Of a stretch of 39,758 nucleotides of DNA, positions 20,408 to 35,938 are shown piece by piece (the first letter of the stretch is position 1; every line of letters starts with the position of its first letter). The position numbers and the translations under genes were made by a program. The stretch lies in the sequence record KC814930. The stretch is one strand, 5' to 3'. Source of the stretch: Shigella phage SfIV. The notes under the pieces are model-generated. The model ran no database searches. It was not told the DNA's origin and worked only from the letters and a program-made list of their open reading frames with translations.

Positions 20408-21721
20408 TTACTTATAAATTCCTGATGCTACCTTATCCAATATAATTGATAGTACTATAAATATCATTAGGTCAAATGAAAAGTTCATTGCAAAAAGATG
20501 CTTGTCTAAATCTCTATATCCTTCGCCAATGAAGCTAATATAAAACTGAGAGATGCTAAAAGCAGATAATGTAAAGATTGCAACAGAATATTTTTTTCGG
20601 ATAAAAATCAGTGATGCTATCATGGCTATAAATGCAACAGGAATCCTCACAGTTGATAGAGCAGAGTCTTTTATTTTTTGAACTTCATTCAAAAAAACAC
20701 TCTTACTTATTATTAGCTTATTTTCCTTGAAGACATGGAAGTAATCTTCAGTTAATTGGGTTCGAACTCCAGAATCAAAAGGAAGAAGGAGGAACATGGA
20801 AGGTTGCTTTAGCATCAAAAGCAAAGAATCCTTCAATCCCCTTTCTTTATTTTTTGCGAAGCAGGCTCCAGCATCTTTTGTGGTAACAGCTCCCTTATCC
20901 AAATCAAATTTATTTCCCCATGCATCAACACCAATGCATTCGTCCACGGCCCACGATGGATTTTCTTTTCCATTGCTTTTATTGTATAGCAAAGTCCCGA
21001 AATAAAGGGAGTGATAGCTGTTATATTTAGTTGCGCTTGGCGAGAAAAATGAAAATGACAATGCAATTATCGTCGCAATTACCATAGCTAAGTGAAATTT
21101 TTTATCTCTTATGTCAATAAATATTATTGAAATTAAAGAAATTAAAATGGGAATATAGAAGAACTGAGATTTTGATGTGGCGATTAGCGCTGCGCATGCA
21201 ACTAGTAATACTTTATCAAACCTTGATATTTCTTTTTTAAGAATTATATAAGTAATTACCGGAAGTAAAGTGATTACTATTTGCTCCTGATAAAATGCTG
21301 TGAATTGTGAAAGTATGGAAGGAGTAAATAGCAATAATGCTGATACCGGAAATAAAAGATAAGAATATTTTTTATTGTTTATTTCTACAAATAGTTTATA
21401 TAACGCACAAATATACACGATTTTGGAAAGAGATGACCATAACCTAAGATCAAATGTGTGTGTGAATATCGATATAACATAAGCGTATAAATAAAGAATA
21501 TAACTAAATGAGCTTTTATACTCATAGTTCACAATTGAACTGAAATTTTCCTTCAGGGTATAAAGTAATGTGCCATCATGTGAGAACTGTCTGATCCCAT
21601 TCATGAAAGGTGTTATGGCCCTATCGAAGTCGCCATTATTCATCATCCATATGTCAATTGACTCCTTGCACAGTAATGCACAAAAAATTGCAAGGAATAC
21701 ATACCTTATTCTTTCAGCCAT
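20408..21721 (-). CDS. serotype-specific O-antigen glucosyltransferase (GtrC-type, polytopic membrane protein)
   Basis: 437 aa, strongly hydrophobic with many predicted TM segments, very AT-rich, immediately downstream of gtrB and gtrA. Confidence 0.7.
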   Translation of the reverse strand: MAERIRYVFLAIFCALLCKESIDIWMMNNGDFDRAITPFMNGIRQFSHDGTLLYTLKENFSSIVNYEYKSSFSYILYLYAYVISIFTHTFDLRLWSSLSKIVYICALYKLFVEINNKKYSYLLFPVSALLLFTPSILSQFTAFYQEQIVITLLPVITYIILKKEISRFDKVLLVACAALIATSKSQFFYIPILISLISIIFIDIRDKKFHLAMVIATIIALSFSFFSPSATKYNSYHSLYFGTLLYNKSNGKENPSWAVDECIGVDAWGNKFDLDKGAVTTKDAGACFAKNKERGLKDSLLLMLKQPSMFLLLPFDSGVRTQLTEDYFHVFKENKLIISKSVFLNEVQKIKDSALSTVRIPVAFIAMIASLIFIRKKYSVAIFTLSAFSISQFYISFIGEGYRDLDKHLFAMNFSFDLMIFIVLSIILDKVASGIYK

Positions 21722-21722
21722 T

Positions 21723-22637
21723 TTATTTCTCTTTTAACAAGTAGCGAGGTCTCTGTTTAACTTCGGTATAAATCCGGCCAATGTACTCGCCCAAAACTCC
21801 GATACCAATGAGCTGCACACCACCGAGAAAAAGTATTGATACCAGCAATGATGGATAACCGCGCACAGGATTCCCGAATGCAAGCGTATCAATGATCATC
21901 CAGGCACCGTACAGGAAAGCCAGGCCTGCAACGAACAGGCCAATGTACGTCCACATGCGTAACGGAAATGTTGAGAAGCTGGTAATCCCTTCAAGCGCCA
22001 GGTTCCAGAGCTTCCAGCCATTAAACTTAGTGCTGCCAGCAACACGCTCAGCGCGAGCATATTCAACAACATCTGTACTCCCACCAACCCAGCTCAATAC
22101 TCCTTTCATGAACAGGTTGCGTTCTGGTAATAATTTAATGTTTTCCACAACTCCGCGAGACATTAGTCGGAAATCGCCGACGTTCTCCTCAATCTTTGGA
22201 TTGCTTATTTTATTGTGAAGTTTATAGAACCACTCAGCAGTCATGCGCTTCAGTCTTCCGTCTGTAGAACGGTCTGAGCGCTTAGCCAGTACCATATCAG
22301 CACCTGCCTGCCACTTTTCAATAAGATGAGGGATAACCTCAATCGGGTCCTGCAGATCGACATCAATAGGAATTACAGCATCGCCGCTTGCATGGTCTAA
22401 CCCTGCAAATAAGGCTGGTTCTTTACCAAAGTTGCGTGTAAATGACAGCGGAACAACTAGCGGGTCTGAAACAGCCAGCGCGTTAATAATTGACTCTGTG
22501 GCATCTTTACTTCCGTCATTTATGAATACAATTTCTACTTCATATGGCTTCAACTCTTGGAATTCACGTACCGTTTTATAGAAAACAGGTATCGCTTCTT
22601 CTTCATTGAAGACAGGAACGACAAGAGATATTTTCAT
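21723..22637 (-). CDS. gtrB: bactoprenol glucosyltransferase
   Basis: 304 aa; N-terminal GT2 features ([26 protein letters not shown]) and C-terminal TM helices. Confidence 0.85.
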
Positions 22638-22996
22638 TTCGCATCCCTAAAGACAATGAACTTTGAATAGACGAAACCGCACACCAGACTGATGGCGGAG
22701 AAGGTGATAAGAGTGACTATTGGAGGAAGTGAGCATTTATCAGCTGCCCAACCAACAATCACACTCAATATTCCCATAAATCCCACGTATAACATGTAGC
22801 GCATCGCTGTAGTCGATGCTTTGAATGTGAATCTTGCATTCGCGAAGAAGCTAAAGCTCACAGCCACTACGAAACCTGTGAAGTTTGCCAGAGCCTGACT
22901 GGTATGTGCGGCATAGATACATACACCAAAAACCACCCAGTGTATAAGTGTGTTCAGCACACCTATAGATGTGTACTTTACAAATAACTTTAACAT
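22634..22996 (-). CDS. gtrA: bactoprenol-linked glucose translocase (flippase)
   Basis: 120 aa, four predicted TM helices, overlaps the gtrB start. Confidence 0.8.
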
Positions 22997-23257: not shown

Positions 23258-24421
23258 TTACACATCATTAGTACCTTCCTTATTTTTTGACTGGGACAAA
23301 TTTGGGACCGATGGGTTCAGGATCGAGTCTATTTGCCGTGCGTGTTCGGTAAGGTGATTAGGTGCAAGGTGAGCATATCGACGAACCATTTCGATAGACT
23401 CCCAGCCTCCCATTTCCTGTAAAACTGACAACGGGACTCCGGCTTGAACCAGCCAACTTGCCCAGGTGTGTCTCAAGTCGTGAAATCTGAAATCATCAAT
23501 ACCAGCCCGTCTCAGCGCCGCTTTCCAGGCTGTGTTTGCGTCATACCGCATCTTCCTTACTGTTGGCGCTTTCGTTCCGTCTGGTTTGGTACAGCTTTCC
23601 TTGTACACAAATACCCAACGGTGATGATTCCCGATTTGTTTTTTCAATACGCGACATGCAGTATCATTCAGCGCAACGCCAATTGCGCGGTTTGATTTAC
23701 TCTCTTCCGGGTTTATCCATGCCACCCGGCGCTGCATATCTATTTGTTGCCATTCAAGGTTGATGATGTTCGAGCGTCTTAAGCCTGTTGCCAGTGCAAA
23801 TTCAACAACAGACTTTAATGGCTCCGGACATTCATCAATCAGCCTTTGTGCTTCATGGGGCTCCAGCCAGCGGATCCGTTTATTCTTTGGTTGAGGCACT
23901 TTAATAATTGGTGCCTTATCCAGCATTTTCCATTCACGCTCTGCGGCTCTTAGTAGGGCCTTTATAAATGAAAGATGCGTAGCCTTCGTTGCAACGGACG
24001 CTGGTTTTGGCGTGTATTCTGGAACAGGTTTCCCTTTTTTTCTGCATGCTTCTGCCCTGAGTTTCCAGTTTTCCTCATGACGCCGGTTCGTCATTTTCTG
24101 CATTGCTGAATAAATTTTTGATTCAGTAATGTCTCTTAGTTGCATTCCTGCGAAATGTTGAAGCCAGAATCCGATCCGGCTTTTGTCATCGTCCAGTGAT
24201 TTTTTATGTGCTTTCTCTTCAAGCCACCTGACACACGCTTCCTCGAACGTTATATCAGGTATTTCACCAAGTTTGCTGACCCGCCATGCTTCAGCCTTTA
24301 GCTTGTCATGGAGTTCTGTCGCCTGCCTTTTGTCCTTTGTTCCAAGAGACTGTTTAAATCTTTTACCGTTCGGCAATGTGAAACTGGCGTACCATATTTC
24401 ACCTCTGCGGAAGAGTGACAT
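23258..24421 (-). CDS. int: tyrosine integrase (P22-type)
   Basis: 387 aa; N-terminus [34 protein letters not shown] and C-terminal catalytic region ([10 protein letters not shown]...VRRYAHL) typical of phage tyrosine integrases; adjacent to attP. Confidence 0.9.
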
Positions 24422-29534: not shown

Positions 29535-30098
29535 ATGAGGCTAACCGTGGGTAAGCATCACTGGAAAGTAGAAAAACAGCCTGAGTGGTACGTGAAAGCT
29601 GTCAGAAAAACTATCGCAAAGTTGCCGGGTGGTTACGCTGAAGCAGCTGACTGGCTGGATGTAACAGAGAACGCATTATTTAACCGCCTTCGTGCCGATG
29701 GCGATCAGATTTTCCCGCTGGGATGGGCAATGATTTTGCAACGTGCTGGTGGAACTCACTTCATTGCTGACGCTGTGGCGCAGTCTGCAAATGGCGTCTT
29801 TGTGTCTCTTCCTGACGTCGAGGATGTGGACAACGCCGATATTAACCAGCGTCTGCTGGAAGTCATTGAACAGATCGGCAGTTATTCAAAACAGATTCGT
29901 TCAGCAATCGAAGACGGTGTAGTGGAACCGCATGAGAAGACAGCAATTAACGACGAGCTGTACCTCTCAATTTCGAAGCTGCAGGAGCATGCAGCACTGG
30001 TCTACAAAATTTTTTGCATTTCAGAAAGTAATGACGCCCGCGAGTGTGCAGCTCCGGGCGCCGTGGCGTGTCGTGACTGTGGAGAAACTAACGCATGA
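29535..30098 (+). CDS. regulatory protein in the CII position
   Basis: 187-aa ORF following cro; assignment is by position only. Confidence 0.4.
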
Positions 30099-30433
30099 AC
30101 AGTTTAACAACACACTACCGTCGCTCGCAACTGATTGCGCTTCCTGTACCGGGTGGAAAAGCGAAGGTGGAGTATTGCTATGCAGTGAATGTACCAGGTG
30201 ACAGGGAAATTGTAACCCACAGCTTTGCAGAGTGGGCTGTGGGGGATTTCAACCGGCAGAAGGAGACAGTCCTTTGCGACAAGTTAATCGCTGGTTCAAA
30301 GATCACTACGGAGTGCCCGTCAGAGTCATTCGTTGGGAGCCGGAAACACAACGGGTTATCTACCTCCGTGAAGGCTATGAGCATGAGTGCTTCAGCCCGC
30401 TCGAACAGTTTCGTCGTAAATTCAGGGAAATAG
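30095..30433 (+). CDS. hypothetical protein (frame ambiguity with 30274..30453)
   Basis: ATGA-coupled to the upstream gene; a second frame (TTG at 30274 with strong SD aaggaga) encodes a more protein-like 59-aa product ending at 30453. Confidence 0.35.
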
Positions 30434-30442
30434 AGGTCGGTC

Positions 30443-31384
30443 ATGAGCACTAAATTAACCGGCTATGTATGGGATGGTTGCGCAGCGTCAGGCATGAAAT
30501 TATCCAGCGTGGCAATTATGGCCCGCCTGGCTGATTTCAGTAATGACGAAGGTGTGTGCTGGCCATCAATTGAAACCATTGCCCGTCAGATTGGCGCGGG
30601 GATGAGTACCGTCAGAACGGCTATCGCACGGCTGGAAGCAGAAGGCTGGTTAACGCGTAAGGCGCGTCGCCAGGGTAACCGCAATGCGTCGAATGTTTAT
30701 CAGCTTAACGTTGCGAAGCTTCAGGCAGCGGCATTTTCTCAACTGTCAGATTCTGACCCGTCAAAATCTGACGCATCAAAATCTGACCCGTCAAAATTTG
30801 ATGCGTCGAAATCTGGCAAAAAAGCGGGTTTTCACCCGTCAGAATCTGGCGGGGATCCGTCAGTAAAATCAAAACATGATCCGTCAGATAAAAAAACTTC
30901 TCGTCCGGACGCTTCGCAACCGGACACGCAGACGGCTGAACAGGAGTTTTTAACTCGCCATCCTGATGCGGTTGTATTCAGCCCTAAAAAGCGCCAGTGG
31001 GGAACGCAGGATGATTTGACCTGCGCACAGTGGCTCTGGAAAAAAATCATCGCCCTGTACGAGCAGGCCGCCGAATGTGACGGCGAGGTGGTTCGTCCCA
31101 AAGAACCGAACTGGACAGCCTGGGCAAACGAAATTCGCCTGATGTGTGTGCAGGATGGTCGTACTCACAAACAAATCTGCGAGATGTACAGCCGCGTCAG
31201 CCGCGATCCGTTCTGGTGCCGTAACGTGCTCAGCCCGTCGAAGCTGCGGGAAAAATGGGATGAGCTTTCCCTGCGCTTATCGCCGTCCGTCAGCACGTAC
31301 ACAGAAAAACGCGAAGACCCGTACTTCAAAGCCAGTTACGACAACGTGGACTACAGCCAGATCCCGGCAGGATTCAGGGGGTGA
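30443..31384 (+). CDS. replication initiator (lambda O-like, iteron-binding)
   Basis: 313 aa; N-terminal HTH-like region; central low-complexity segment (SDSDPSKSDASKSDPSKFDASKSG) encoded by the iteron repeats. Confidence 0.7.
   Translation: MSTKLTGYVWDGCAASGMKLSSVAIMARLADFSNDEGVCWPSIETIARQIGAGMSTVRTAIARLEAEGWLTRKARRQGNRNASNVYQLNVAKLQAAAFSQLSDSDPSKSDASKSDPSKFDASKSGKKAGFHPSESGGDPSVKSKHDPSDKKTSRPDASQPDTQTAEQEFLTRHPDAVVFSPKKRQWGTQDDLTCAQWLWKKIIALYEQAAECDGEVVRPKEPNWTAWANEIRLMCVQDGRTHKQICEMYSRVSRDPFWCRNVLSPSKLREKWDELSLRLSPSVSTYTEKREDPYFKASYDNVDYSQIPAGFRG
30743..30897 (+). repeat. iteron array (candidate origin of replication) inside the O-like gene
   Basis: At least six direct copies of a ~15-bp unit (gacccgtcaaaatct, gacgcatcaaaatct, gacccgtcaaaattt, gatgcgtcgaaatct, cacccgtcagaatct, gatccgtcag...), followed by an A-rich run. 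Confidence 0.7.
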
Positions 31385-31386
31385 TC

Positions 31387-31875
31387 ATGAGTCTTTTGAA
31401 TGAAGTTCAGAAATACATTGAAGCCCATCCGGGGTGTACTTCCGGAGACATTGCGGATGCTTTTGCAGGTTACTCACGGCAGCGCGTTCTGCAGTCAGCA
31501 AGCAAGTTACGTCAGAGTGGGCGTGTGGCTCACCGTTGTGAAGGGGATACACGCAGACATTTCCCGCGCCTGACTGAGAGAGCGCAGGAGGCGGAACCGC
31601 AACCAGTTCGTGAAACCAGACCTGTGCGCAATTTCTATGTCGGCACTAACGACCCGCGGGAGATTTTGTGCCTGACCCGCCAGGCTGAAGAACTGGAGTC
31701 CAGGGGCTTATACCGTCGTGCTGCAACGGTGTGGATGGCGGCATTCCGTGAAAGCCACTCCCAGCCAGAACGAAACAATTTTCTGGCGCGTCGTGAGCAG
31801 TGTTTACGGAAAAGCAGCAAGCGCGCTGTATCGAGTGATGAGTGGTATCTGTCAGGGAATTACGTGGGGGCGTAA
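31387..31875 (+). CDS. PerC-family transcriptional regulator-like protein
   Basis: ATG at 31387; C-terminal half carries GLYRRAATVWMAAF, resembling the PerC/Pch core motif as I recall it; occupies the lambda P position. Confidence 0.45.
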   Translation: MSLLNEVQKYIEAHPGCTSGDIADAFAGYSRQRVLQSASKLRQSGRVAHRCEGDTRRHFPRLTERAQEAEPQPVRETRPVRNFYVGTNDPREILCLTRQAEELESRGLYRRAATVWMAAFRESHSQPERNNFLARREQCLRKSSKRAVSSDEWYLSGNYVGA

Positions 31876-32201
31876 TGACGACGTTAACTCAATGCCAGCA
31901 GCAGGTGCTGGATATGCTGATTTCTTATCAGAAAGAACGTGGCTTCCCGCCAACCAATCAGGAGGTGGCAACCATGCTGGGATACCGTTCGGTGAATGCA
32001 GCGGTGGAGCATCTTCGCGCACTGGAGAAAAAAGGCGTCATCACGATAAAGCGTGGTGTGGCCCGGGGGATCACGCTTCATACCGTGGTGAAGGACGACG
32101 ACAGCGAGGCGGTCGGGATTATCCGCTCACTGCTTGCCGGTGAGGAAAACGCCAGGCTGCGTGCAGCCCACTGGTTACATGAGAGGGGCCTGAAAGTATG
32201 A
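31875..32201 (+). CDS. LexA DNA-binding-domain-like protein (no S24 peptidase domain)
   Basis: ATG at 31875 overlapping the upstream stop; MTTLTQCQQQVLDMLISYQKERGFPPTNQEVATMLGYRSVNAAVEHLRALEKKGVITIKRGVARGI parallels the LexA N-terminal winged helix; only 108 aa. Confidence 0.65.
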   Translation: MTTLTQCQQQVLDMLISYQKERGFPPTNQEVATMLGYRSVNAAVEHLRALEKKGVITIKRGVARGITLHTVVKDDDSEAVGIIRSLLAGEENARLRAAHWLHERGLKV

Positions 32202-32593
32202 AGCTGATCCTTCCTTTTCCGCCCAGCGTGAACACGTACTGGCGACACCCCAACAAAGGGGCGTTTGCTGGTAAGAGCCTGATAAGCGCGGCGGGGTGAA
32301 AATTCCAGAGCGCGGCGTGCGCAGCAATAGTTGAGCAGTTACGTCGTCTGCCGAAACCAACGTCGGCACCTGCTTCAGTGGAGATCGTTTTGTTTCCTCC
32401 GGATAACCGGATCCGCGATCTGGACAACTATAACAAGGCGCTGTTTGACGCCCTGACCCACGCGGGTGTGTGGGAAGACGACAGTCAGGTGAAAAGAATG
32501 CTGGTGGAGTGGGGACCGGTTATCCCGGAGGGGAAGGTCGAGATCACTATCAGTAAGTACGAAAAAGCGAGTTGCAAATTAGCAACTCGGTAA
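32198..32593 (+). pseudogene. rusA: rusA-like Holliday junction resolvase with in-frame TGA at 32297..32299
   Basis: Reading from ATG 32198 gives MKLILPFPPSVNTYWRHPNKGAFAGKSLISAAG then TGA; the same frame continues with ...RDLDNYNKALFDALTHAGVWEDDSQV..., the RusA catalytic region. Confidence 0.65.
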
Positions 32594-34568: not shown

Positions 34569-34585
34569 TTTTGTGGAGAAATTTG

Positions 34586-34948
34586 ATGCGTGATATTCAG
34601 ATGGTTCTTGAGCGTTGGGGGGGATGGGCTGCTAGTGATAATTCAGGCGTTGACTATTCTCCAATCGCAGCAGGATTTAAAGGGCTTTTACCACAAACAG
34701 GTAAAAACAGACTCTCATGTACTGATGCCGACGGATTAATCATTGAGGGGTGCCTTGCTCGGCTGAAGAAGAAAAAACCTTATGAGCATTCGTTACTAGT
34801 AGCACATTATTTGTATGGTCTTTCTAAGAGAAAAATTGCTAAAGAAAAGAAAAAGGACGAGAAACTTATACGCATTGAGATTAAAATGGCTGAAGGATTT
34901 ATCGAAGGTTGTCTTTCAATGTTGGATATTAGATTAGAAATGGATTGA
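34586..34948 (+). CDS. Q: late antiterminator Q
   Basis: ATG at 34586 with SD ggag; MRDIQMVLERWGGWAA... N-terminus; a late promoter/terminator pair lies downstream. Confidence 0.7.
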   Translation: MRDIQMVLERWGGWAASDNSGVDYSPIAAGFKGLLPQTGKNRLSCTDADGLIIEGCLARLKKKKPYEHSLLVAHYLYGLSKRKIAKEKKKDEKLIRIEIKMAEGFIEGCLSMLDIRLEMD

Positions 34949-35240: not shown

Positions 35241-35516
35241 GTGGCTTCTGTTTCTATCAGCTGTCCCTCCTGTTCAGCTACTGACGGGGTGGTGCGTAAC
35301 GGCAAAAGCACCGCCGGACATCAGCGCTATCTCTGCTCTCACTGCCGTAAAACATGGCAACTGCAGTTCACTTACACCGCTTCTCAACCCGGTACGCACC
35401 AGAAAATCATTGATATGGCCATGAATGGCGTTGGATGCCGGGCAACAGCCCGCATTATGGGCGTTGGCCTCAACACGATTTTACGTCACTTAAAAAACTC
35501 AGGCCGCAGTCGGTAA
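35241..35516 (+). CDS. insA: IS1 InsA
   Basis: 91 aa, [43 protein letters not shown]... Confidence 0.9.
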
Positions 35517-35938
35517 CCTCGCGCATACAGCCGGGCAGTGACGTCATCGTCTGCGCGGAAATGGACGAACAGTGGGGCTATGTCGGGGCTAAATCGCGCC
35601 AGCGCTGGCTGTTTTACGCGTATGACAGTCTCCGGAAGACGGTTGTTGCGCACGTATTCGGTGAACGCACTATGGCGACGCTGGGGCGTCTTATGAGCCT
35701 GCTGTCACCCTTTGACGTGGTGATATGGATGACGGATGGCTGGCCGCTGTATGAATCCCGCCTGAAGGGAAAGCTGCACGTAATCAGCAAGCGATATACG
35801 CAGCGAATTGAGCGGCATAACCTAAATCTGAGGCAGCACCTGGCACGGCTGGGACGGAAGTCGCTGTCGTTCTCAAAATCGGTGGAGCTGCATGACAAAG
35901 TCATCGGGCATTATCTGAACATAAAACACTATCAATAA
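35435..35938 (+). CDS. insB: IS1 InsB frame (expressed as InsAB' by frameshift)
   Basis: 167-aa ORF overlapping the insA 3' end in the -1 frame. Confidence 0.9.

Follow-up and report, generated by a model that had tools for sequence, protein, structure and literature searches.

What is encoded directly downstream of the replication initiator gene in Shigella phage SfIV (sequence record KC814930)? In the window, that is, the whole stretch of 39,758 nucleotides analysed here, this place is taken by a gene whose product had been described in the initial annotation as resembling the PerC/Pch-type activators, and which lies where lambdoid phages usually encode the helicase loader. The question is whether this product regulates transcription or serves replication. 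Judged by its sequence, the gene is of the yfdN type, a PerC-family regulator gene that is common in prophages and already catalogued. We hold, with about even confidence, that its product serves as an accessory regulator made from the early operon, or as a modulator of the nucleoid, and not as a helicase loader. The gene and the run preceding it are as follows.

31387..31875, + strand: yfdN-type coding sequence, 162 aa plus stop, matched over its full length (aa 1–161) by phrog_1324 (E 2.7e-76)
31376–31381, + strand: AGGGGG, a Shine–Dalgarno-like run read from the sequence

The open reading frame that had been proposed is real: it extends on the + strand from the ATG at 31387 to the TAA at 31873–31875. 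The size given for its product, 163 aa, has to be corrected to 162 aa, as the stop codon had been counted among the 163 codons. RefSeq/PGAP uses an alternative start, the GTG at 31381, which lies six bases upstream and yields 164 aa. However, the ATG at 31387 is the better start, since MS(L/I/M) forms the N-terminus of every homolog aligned, down to about 25% identity, and since the AGGGGG run is located 5 nt before this ATG. The stop codon of the initiator gene (TGA, 31382–31384) is separated from the ATG by a gap of 2 nt, which makes the translational coupling to the initiator gene, also claimed in the initial annotation, plausible. At the other end, the stop codon overlaps the ATG of the next gene (TAATG at 31873–31877). 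Together, the 2-nt spacing and this overlap point to a coupled gene chain. In RefSeq, the close chromosomal copies bear the name "yfdN: PerC family transcriptional regulator", and PHROG 1324, which is labelled 'transcriptional activator', was matched by all of 27 diverse two-domain homologs.

The assignment to the PerC family concerns the C-terminal half of the protein, in which two features are located.

31654..31827, + strand: PerC domain, aa 90–147, a basic three-helix, TPR-like bundle
31705..31746, + strand: core motif GLYRRAATVWMAAF, aa 107–120, at the centre of the PF06069 match; it aligns to GFYRRAADRWAEIM of EPEC PerC

The resemblance of this segment to PerC, which had been put forward in the initial annotation, was borne out by the HMM check: the Pfam model PF06069 (PerC) matched aa 98–152 with 39.4 bits (gathering cutoff, 22.6; E 7.4e-10; model positions 5–59 of 90), and it also matched 26 of 27 diverse full-length two-domain homologs. 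The motif put forward is the actual core of the PerC family, G-(F/L)-(Y/W)-R-R-A-A-x-x-W in helix 2, which reads GLYRRAATVW in the window protein over GFYRRAADRW in EPEC PerC. L103, R111, and A112 are invariant in the 27 diverse homologs, and BLASTP against EPEC PerC (plasmid pMAR7) gave 32% identity over 56 aa (E 2e-7). Two outcomes had been named beforehand as contradicting the assignment, the lack of a PerC match and a confident match to a replication protein family; neither was seen in Pfam, NCBIfam, PHROGs, or PADLOC. The protein differs from the known members mainly in its size. The PerC/Pch proteins are typically single-domain proteins of about 90–105 aa, a range that is no formal criterion, and the Pch proteins have about 104 aa. 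EPEC PerC has 89 aa and carries the PerC domain N-terminally, without a winged helix. The window protein, of 162 aa, has the PerC domain and the core G(F/L)YRRAA..W in common with EPEC PerC, but it is extended by a Ren-like winged helix of 60 aa, by a linker, and by the conserved tail LxGNYVG. These additional parts are located as follows.

31387..31566, + strand: N-terminal winged-helix domain, Ren-like, aa 1–60
31576..31635, + strand: linker, variable, acidic, and probably disordered, about aa 64–83
31843..31869, + strand: C-terminal tail WYLSGNYVG, aa 153–161

In an AlphaFold model based on a 12-sequence alignment, residues 1–60 are predicted to form a winged helix composed of three helices and a beta hairpin (pLDDT 77–91), residues 64–83 a disordered linker, and residues 90–147 three helices. 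The linker, whose length and sequence differ among the homologs, and the C-terminal tail, which is modelled as unstructured, both have pLDDT values below 50. The tail follows the pattern LxG(N/R)(Y/F)xG: among 27 homologs, G157 is conserved in 22, G161 in 23, and Y/F159 in 23, while EPEC PerC has no such conserved tail. Both domains are basic, with a median net charge of +2 for the N-terminal domain and +6 for the PerC domain. A profile search of 1.84 billion representative proteins gave 154 matches, among which many proteins of 140–165 aa with both domains and also short proteins consisting of the PerC part only were found. A sequence search of the PDB with the family profile gave no match at E values up to 10.

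As for the N-terminal domain, a relationship to the Ren-like proteins is suggested. The phrog_142 (Ren-like) profile matched the window protein with E 0.0024 and 6 of the 27 homologs, the best one with E 2.4e-5. In hhalign comparisons, the domain was matched with 96% probability to an ORF of 100 aa at the Ren position of Klebsiella phage Kp4856-1, behind its P-like gene, and with a marginal 48% (E 1.8e-4) to lambda Ren. The N-terminal winged helix of the window protein aligns with the Ren-like proteins (lambda Ren and phrog_142) over about 62 residues, and in the early-right operon, Ren as well as yfdN comes after the replication genes; on the other hand, Ren has about 96–100 aa and no PerC domain, and the likeness of lambda Ren itself to the window protein is marginal. 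The two-domain description, the Ren-like relationship, the evidence that the gene is dispensable and encodes no loader (see below), and the conserved tails (that of the initiator included) are what is added here, a modest extension for a gene that was itself already known.

The upstream neighbour has a structure of its own, which can be described by three features.

30443..31384, + strand: replication initiator, 313 aa, with an HTH_36 N-domain and a lambda-O-like C-domain; phrog_391 'replication initiation O-like', E 1.6e-135
30731..30853, + strand: iteron array inside the initiator gene, 15-bp units, six copies at 15-nt spacing with a last gap of 33 nt; consensus TCAAAATCTGACCCG
31349..31381, + strand: C-terminal tail of the initiator, DYSQIPAGFRG, conserved at the ends of differing initiators upstream of yfdN-like genes

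Over residues 131–277, the initiator shares 34.9% identity with the C-domain of lambda O (E 4e-18). In lambda, the iterons lie inside O, and those of the window likewise lie inside the initiator gene; the array is probably the phage origin. At the protein level, the array encodes a repetitive DPSKSDASKS stretch of the initiator. Between the YmfL/CII-like gene and the initiator gene (positions 30095–30433 and 30232–30453), a 112-aa ORF (phrog_1170) was also noted, where RefSeq has only a 59-aa DUF4222 protein in an overlapping frame, so that the gene call there is uncertain.

The tail of the initiator is shared among otherwise different proteins. Among 80 loci of IMG/VR whose yfdN is nearly identical, the initiators belong to at least three N-domain types and at least two C-domain types, and all 80 have the last approximately 23 residues in common (EDPYFKASYDNVDYSQIPAGFRG). 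In Salmonella phage F1055, whose YfdN is 44% identical, a DnaD-type initiator ends with ...VDTTIPEGFRG. For the metagenomic homologs (31–33% identity), the upstream gene ends with IPxGFRG plus 0–3 residues, and the same was found in Citrobacter, Franconibacter, and Kosakonia genomes, three lineages being excepted; the bacterial genome loci come from a genome-contig scan that yielded 9 loci. The bodies found upstream of yfdN comprise initiators of 313, 272, and 330 aa, the DnaD/TIGR02220-like one of F1055, and metagenomic ones of 290 and 305–308 aa, that is, at least five types, nearly all of which end with (D/T)(Y/T)xxIPxGFRG plus 0–3 residues. In the IPxGFRG tail, synonymous changes are seen among the Arg, Gly, Ile, and Pro codons, and the spacing between the tail and the start of yfdN is not constant either; thus, the conservation acts on the peptide and not only on a ribosome-binding site. 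A different tail, ..LD.NNTDWIYGV.., is found where an initiator with a lambda-O-like C-domain precedes a P-like loader (lambda, Erwinia phage Eho59, and Klebsiella phage Kp4856-1). The DNA pattern for DYxxIPxGFRG, which misses the DTTIP, AYTIP, and DKxIP tail variants, gave 120 matches in IMG/VR, all located at ORF ends, and a yfdN-like gene follows in 114 of the 117 informative ones; this sample is dominated by related enterobacterial prophages and is phylogenetically narrow, so that inherited gene order inflates the association between the tail and yfdN. As partners of the tail, a factor of the host, YfdN, and the LexA-DBD-like protein encoded next come into consideration. In phages whose modules have no helicase loader gene, the IPxGFRG peptide may offer a handle on how the host replication machinery is recruited.

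Is yfdN then the helicase loader gene of this module? The remark on its position in the initial annotation stands, as the gene directly follows the initiator gene and is coupled to it, but it can be refined: since the N-domain appears to be related to the Ren-like proteins, which follow P in lambda-type modules, the gene looks as if it filled, in enlarged form, the 'ren slot' of a P-less module, and not as a replacement of P. Neither P nor DnaC nor DnaB genes were found in the replication module of the window with Pfam, NCBIfam, and PHROGs. The window protein itself matched none of the loader and helicase families (lambda P, PF06992; DnaC/IstB-like; DnaB) at E ≤1 in Pfam/NCBIfam or at E ≤0.01 in PHROGs, and PADLOC gave no match for it. 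The likeness to lambda P is one of position only, directly after and coupled to an O-type initiator gene whose product has a lambda-O-homologous C-domain, whereas no sequence or family similarity is seen between the two proteins. Furthermore, tail-bearing initiators occur without yfdN. In phage mEp390, which we take to be a plaque-forming isolate, the initiator ending with ...NTDYSRIPAGFRGANS is followed at once by the LexA-DBD-like gene. In the 3 of the 117 informative IMG/VR tail contigs that have no yfdN, a methyltransferase or LexA-like gene lies directly after the tail. In phage cdtI, reportedly an inducible prophage to judge from the title of Asakura et al. 2007, an in-frame deletion has left only aa 1–26 plus YVGD of yfdN. 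Given the lack of a family match, together with the yfdN-less phages and contigs that keep the initiator tail, we reject the helicase-loader reading. For tail-bearing initiators, yfdN is dispensable in natural phages, and we read it as an accessory, non-essential insertion that lies after the initiator gene and before the conserved LexA-DBD-like and RusA genes, at a place corresponding to the ren slot.

Even so, a purely transcriptional role leaves the very tight linkage to one initiator tail unexplained, and this counts against the regulator reading. The linkage could be accounted for if the product were an adaptor of the replication module, whose TPR-like PerC domain docks on the IPxGFRG tail and aids or regulates the recruitment of the host helicase, in the role of lambda P. 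Several observations are consistent with such an adaptor: yfdN lies directly after, and is coupled to, the initiator gene in all close and distant relatives examined; nearly all of the initiators carry the tail, irrespective of their several body types; the synonymous codon changes indicate selection on the peptide; the P-followed lambda-O-type initiators have the other tail; the yfdN-like gene follows the tail in nearly all informative IMG/VR matches; the module has no P, DnaC, or DnaB gene; and the PerC domain has a TPR/MIT-like fold, a kind of fold that often binds terminal peptides. However, mEp390 and the contigs in which the methyltransferase or LexA-DBD-like gene comes next keep the tail without yfdN, the cdtI gene is almost wholly deleted in a phage that is reportedly inducible, the co-occurrence in related enterobacterial prophages may reflect an inherited order of genes, and the protein has no sequence similarity to loaders. 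On account of mEp390, the three contigs, the cdtI deletion, and the narrow sample, we keep the adaptor as a minority view and consider it unlikely. A bolder form of it, which seems to us very unlikely, is that the winged-helix/PerC protein is an unrecognised replication component of P-less lambdoid phages, in which the PerC domain or the LxGNYVG tail reads the IPxGFRG peptide and thereby links initiation with the recruitment of the helicase or with a de-silencing of the nucleoid at the origin. If this were true, the PerC fold would primarily be a replication-linked peptide-binding module that was later co-opted for the virulence regulators PerC and Pch.

Two further explanations start from the individual domains. 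From the N-terminal side, the protein may be a Ren-like factor for anti-exclusion or host takeover, in which the N-domain shields the phage from exclusion by a resident prophage and the PerC domain is an added effector or targeting module. The phrog_142 matches and the hhalign results described above, the operon place relative to the replication genes, which corresponds to that of Ren, and the dispensability of yfdN all suit this explanation; but lambda Ren itself was only weakly matched, no PADLOC or anti-defence family was hit, the winged-helix fold is generic, and the analogy with Ren predicts little, so we regard it as improbable. From the C-terminal side, the PerC-like domain may act as an anti-activator in the manner of the ANR family (Aar-type AraC negative regulators), inactivating a regulator of the AraC/XylS type or of the phage, in which case the regulation would be negative. 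The ANR proteins consist of a small basic helical domain as is also found in the window protein, but they are single-domain proteins of less than 10 kDa, which the window protein is not. The NCBIfam model ANR_neg_reg (NF033650) detected weak similarity over aa 96–142, with 22.3 bits against a curated cutoff of 32. The PerC model was passed and the ANR model was not, and no AraC-family gene is adjacent in the module. A small helical fold suits protein–protein binding, and a PICI-encoded PerC-family protein represses LEE1, for which its authors suspected ANR-like behaviour (PMC11773190). To this anti-activator explanation, too, we give little credence.

We return to the accessory regulator, which we prefer. 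The gene would be expressed from the repressor-controlled early-right operon of this SfV-like temperate phage, and its product would be made upon prophage induction or infection, alongside the replication proteins. By analogy with PerC/Pch, the winged helix and the basic PerC domain may bind DNA or nucleoprotein, and either H-NS-type silencing complexes would be remodelled or another regulator would be bound. Transcription of phage genes, and possibly of host genes, would thereby be modulated during lytic development, while the initiator would work without the yfdN product, which would not serve as a helicase loader. Family membership, architecture, place in the operon, wide conservation, and dispensability in natural phages are seen directly, whereas we infer that the protein binds DNA and relieves silencing or counteracts a regulator, and likewise in which direction and on which targets it acts. 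Two basic domains, one of them a winged helix, would suit a protein that binds DNA or nucleoprotein, as Pch is reported to do. The Pch proteins associate with DNA at many loci and displace H-NS/StpA/Hha from the LEE1 promoter; co-precipitation of H-NS with Pch was not detected (PMC4764244), which counts against the regulator reading. The family is also mixed in its behaviour: PerC and Pch activate LEE1, PchA–C activate ler while PchD/E barely do so (PMC5931665), and the PICI-encoded member represses. Thus, the direction of regulation is not predictable from family membership.

With respect to expression, a crude promoter scan revealed no independent + strand promoter for yfdN, and the same scan also missed the PR-type promoter. 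Because yfdN lies inside the repressed early-right operon, its expression in a stable lysogen, and hence an action on host genes there, is doubtful. In the literature, no study testing a YfdN-type protein was found; such proteins appear only as traces in screens, and the experiments concern short PerC-only proteins. In uropathogenic E. coli CFT073 under nitric oxide stress, yfdN was up 12.6-fold and was listed with other prophage-region genes, a rise that fits induction-linked expression. In another screen, overexpression of yfdN altered glycogen. One paper (PMC5931665) names the gene 'the K12 unique PerC homologue', and as a safeguard it had been removed from the ler-lacZ reporter strain of K-12 used there. 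The possibility that pchD/pchE are themselves of the YfdN type was considered and judged unlikely, since in citing papers the non-activating PerC-like genes are assigned to satellite islands (PICIs).

The gene is widely conserved. Of 5426 complete E. coli genomes, 2820 contain a match to the 4.4-kb region around it, with 98–99% identity in the best cases, and the RefSeq feature underlying a 98.8% identical DNA match is yfdN. Orthologs that are 92.6–96.9% identical occur in E. coli and Shigella phages, namely mEp460, SfV (orf40, 'transcriptional activator'), and SfII, the converting phages for Stx2c and Stx2a, and others; the identity of the window protein to Sb43 of Salmonella phage ST64B is 65%. 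In the protein collection, many clusters at 94–98% identity were found, some with thousands of sequences, and all of them bear the name PerC family regulator. E. coli YfdN (CPS-53/KpLE1 prophage) and the ORFs of SfV, SfII, mEp460, ST64B, and the Stx phages agree with the window in family, architecture, and post-initiator position, while the flanking genes reveal mosaicism: the upstream initiator has 313 aa in the window and 272 aa in SfV/ST64B, and the downstream gene is LexA-DBD-like in the window and encodes a Dam-type methylase in SfV/ST64B. Related copies lie in a large share of the complete E. coli genomes and in phages that convert for Stx or serotype. A regulator of the PerC type that is turned on when a prophage is induced could act on genes for virulence or biofilm formation, in the way of PchA–E.

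It was also observed that yfdN is often damaged in prophages: besides the in-frame deletion in phage cdtI, one split ORF and deletion fusions were found, the latter joining the N-terminus of the initiator to the rest of YfdN (database entries of 234 and 186 aa). Longer database entries that looked like natural fusions of the initiator tail to YfdN were rejected, being frameshift or deletion artefacts in other frames.

Finally, the window as a whole is an SfV-like serotype-converting prophage, with genes for a terminase, a contractile tail sheath, an integrase, and an S24-peptidase repressor, and with gtrA/gtrB and a type-specific gtr gene. It also carries the genes for the YmfL/CII-like protein, the initiator, YfdN, a LexA-DBD-only protein, RusA, KilA-N, DUF968/HNH, and Q. 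The neighbouring genes referred to are the following.

31875..32201, + strand: LexA DNA-binding-domain-only protein, 108 aa; PF01726, E 2.9e-19; phrog_362
20408–21721, − strand: type-specific membrane protein (gtr), 437 aa
21723–22637, − strand: gtrB, family-2 glycosyltransferase
22634–22996, − strand: gtrA, O-antigen modification cassette
23258–24421, − strand: integrase, adjoining the O-antigen cassette typical of SfV/SfII-type serotype-converting phages

The LexA-DBD-only protein has no peptidase domain, and its gene is coupled to both yfdN and rusA; in the module, it is even more widely conserved than yfdN, and mEp390 as well as the Citrobacter and Kosakonia loci have it. The rusA gene (32198–32593) is broken by a premature stop, CGA having changed to TGA at 32297 as compared with the 99% identical intact gene of E. 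coli F467, and the Pfam match of RusA is limited to a C-terminal 71-aa ORF (32378–32593). Downstream of the Q antiterminator gene (34571–34948), an IS1 transposase ORF (35435–35938; PF03400, E 5.9e-78) was found, a sign that an IS1 element has inserted into the late-regulatory or moron region.
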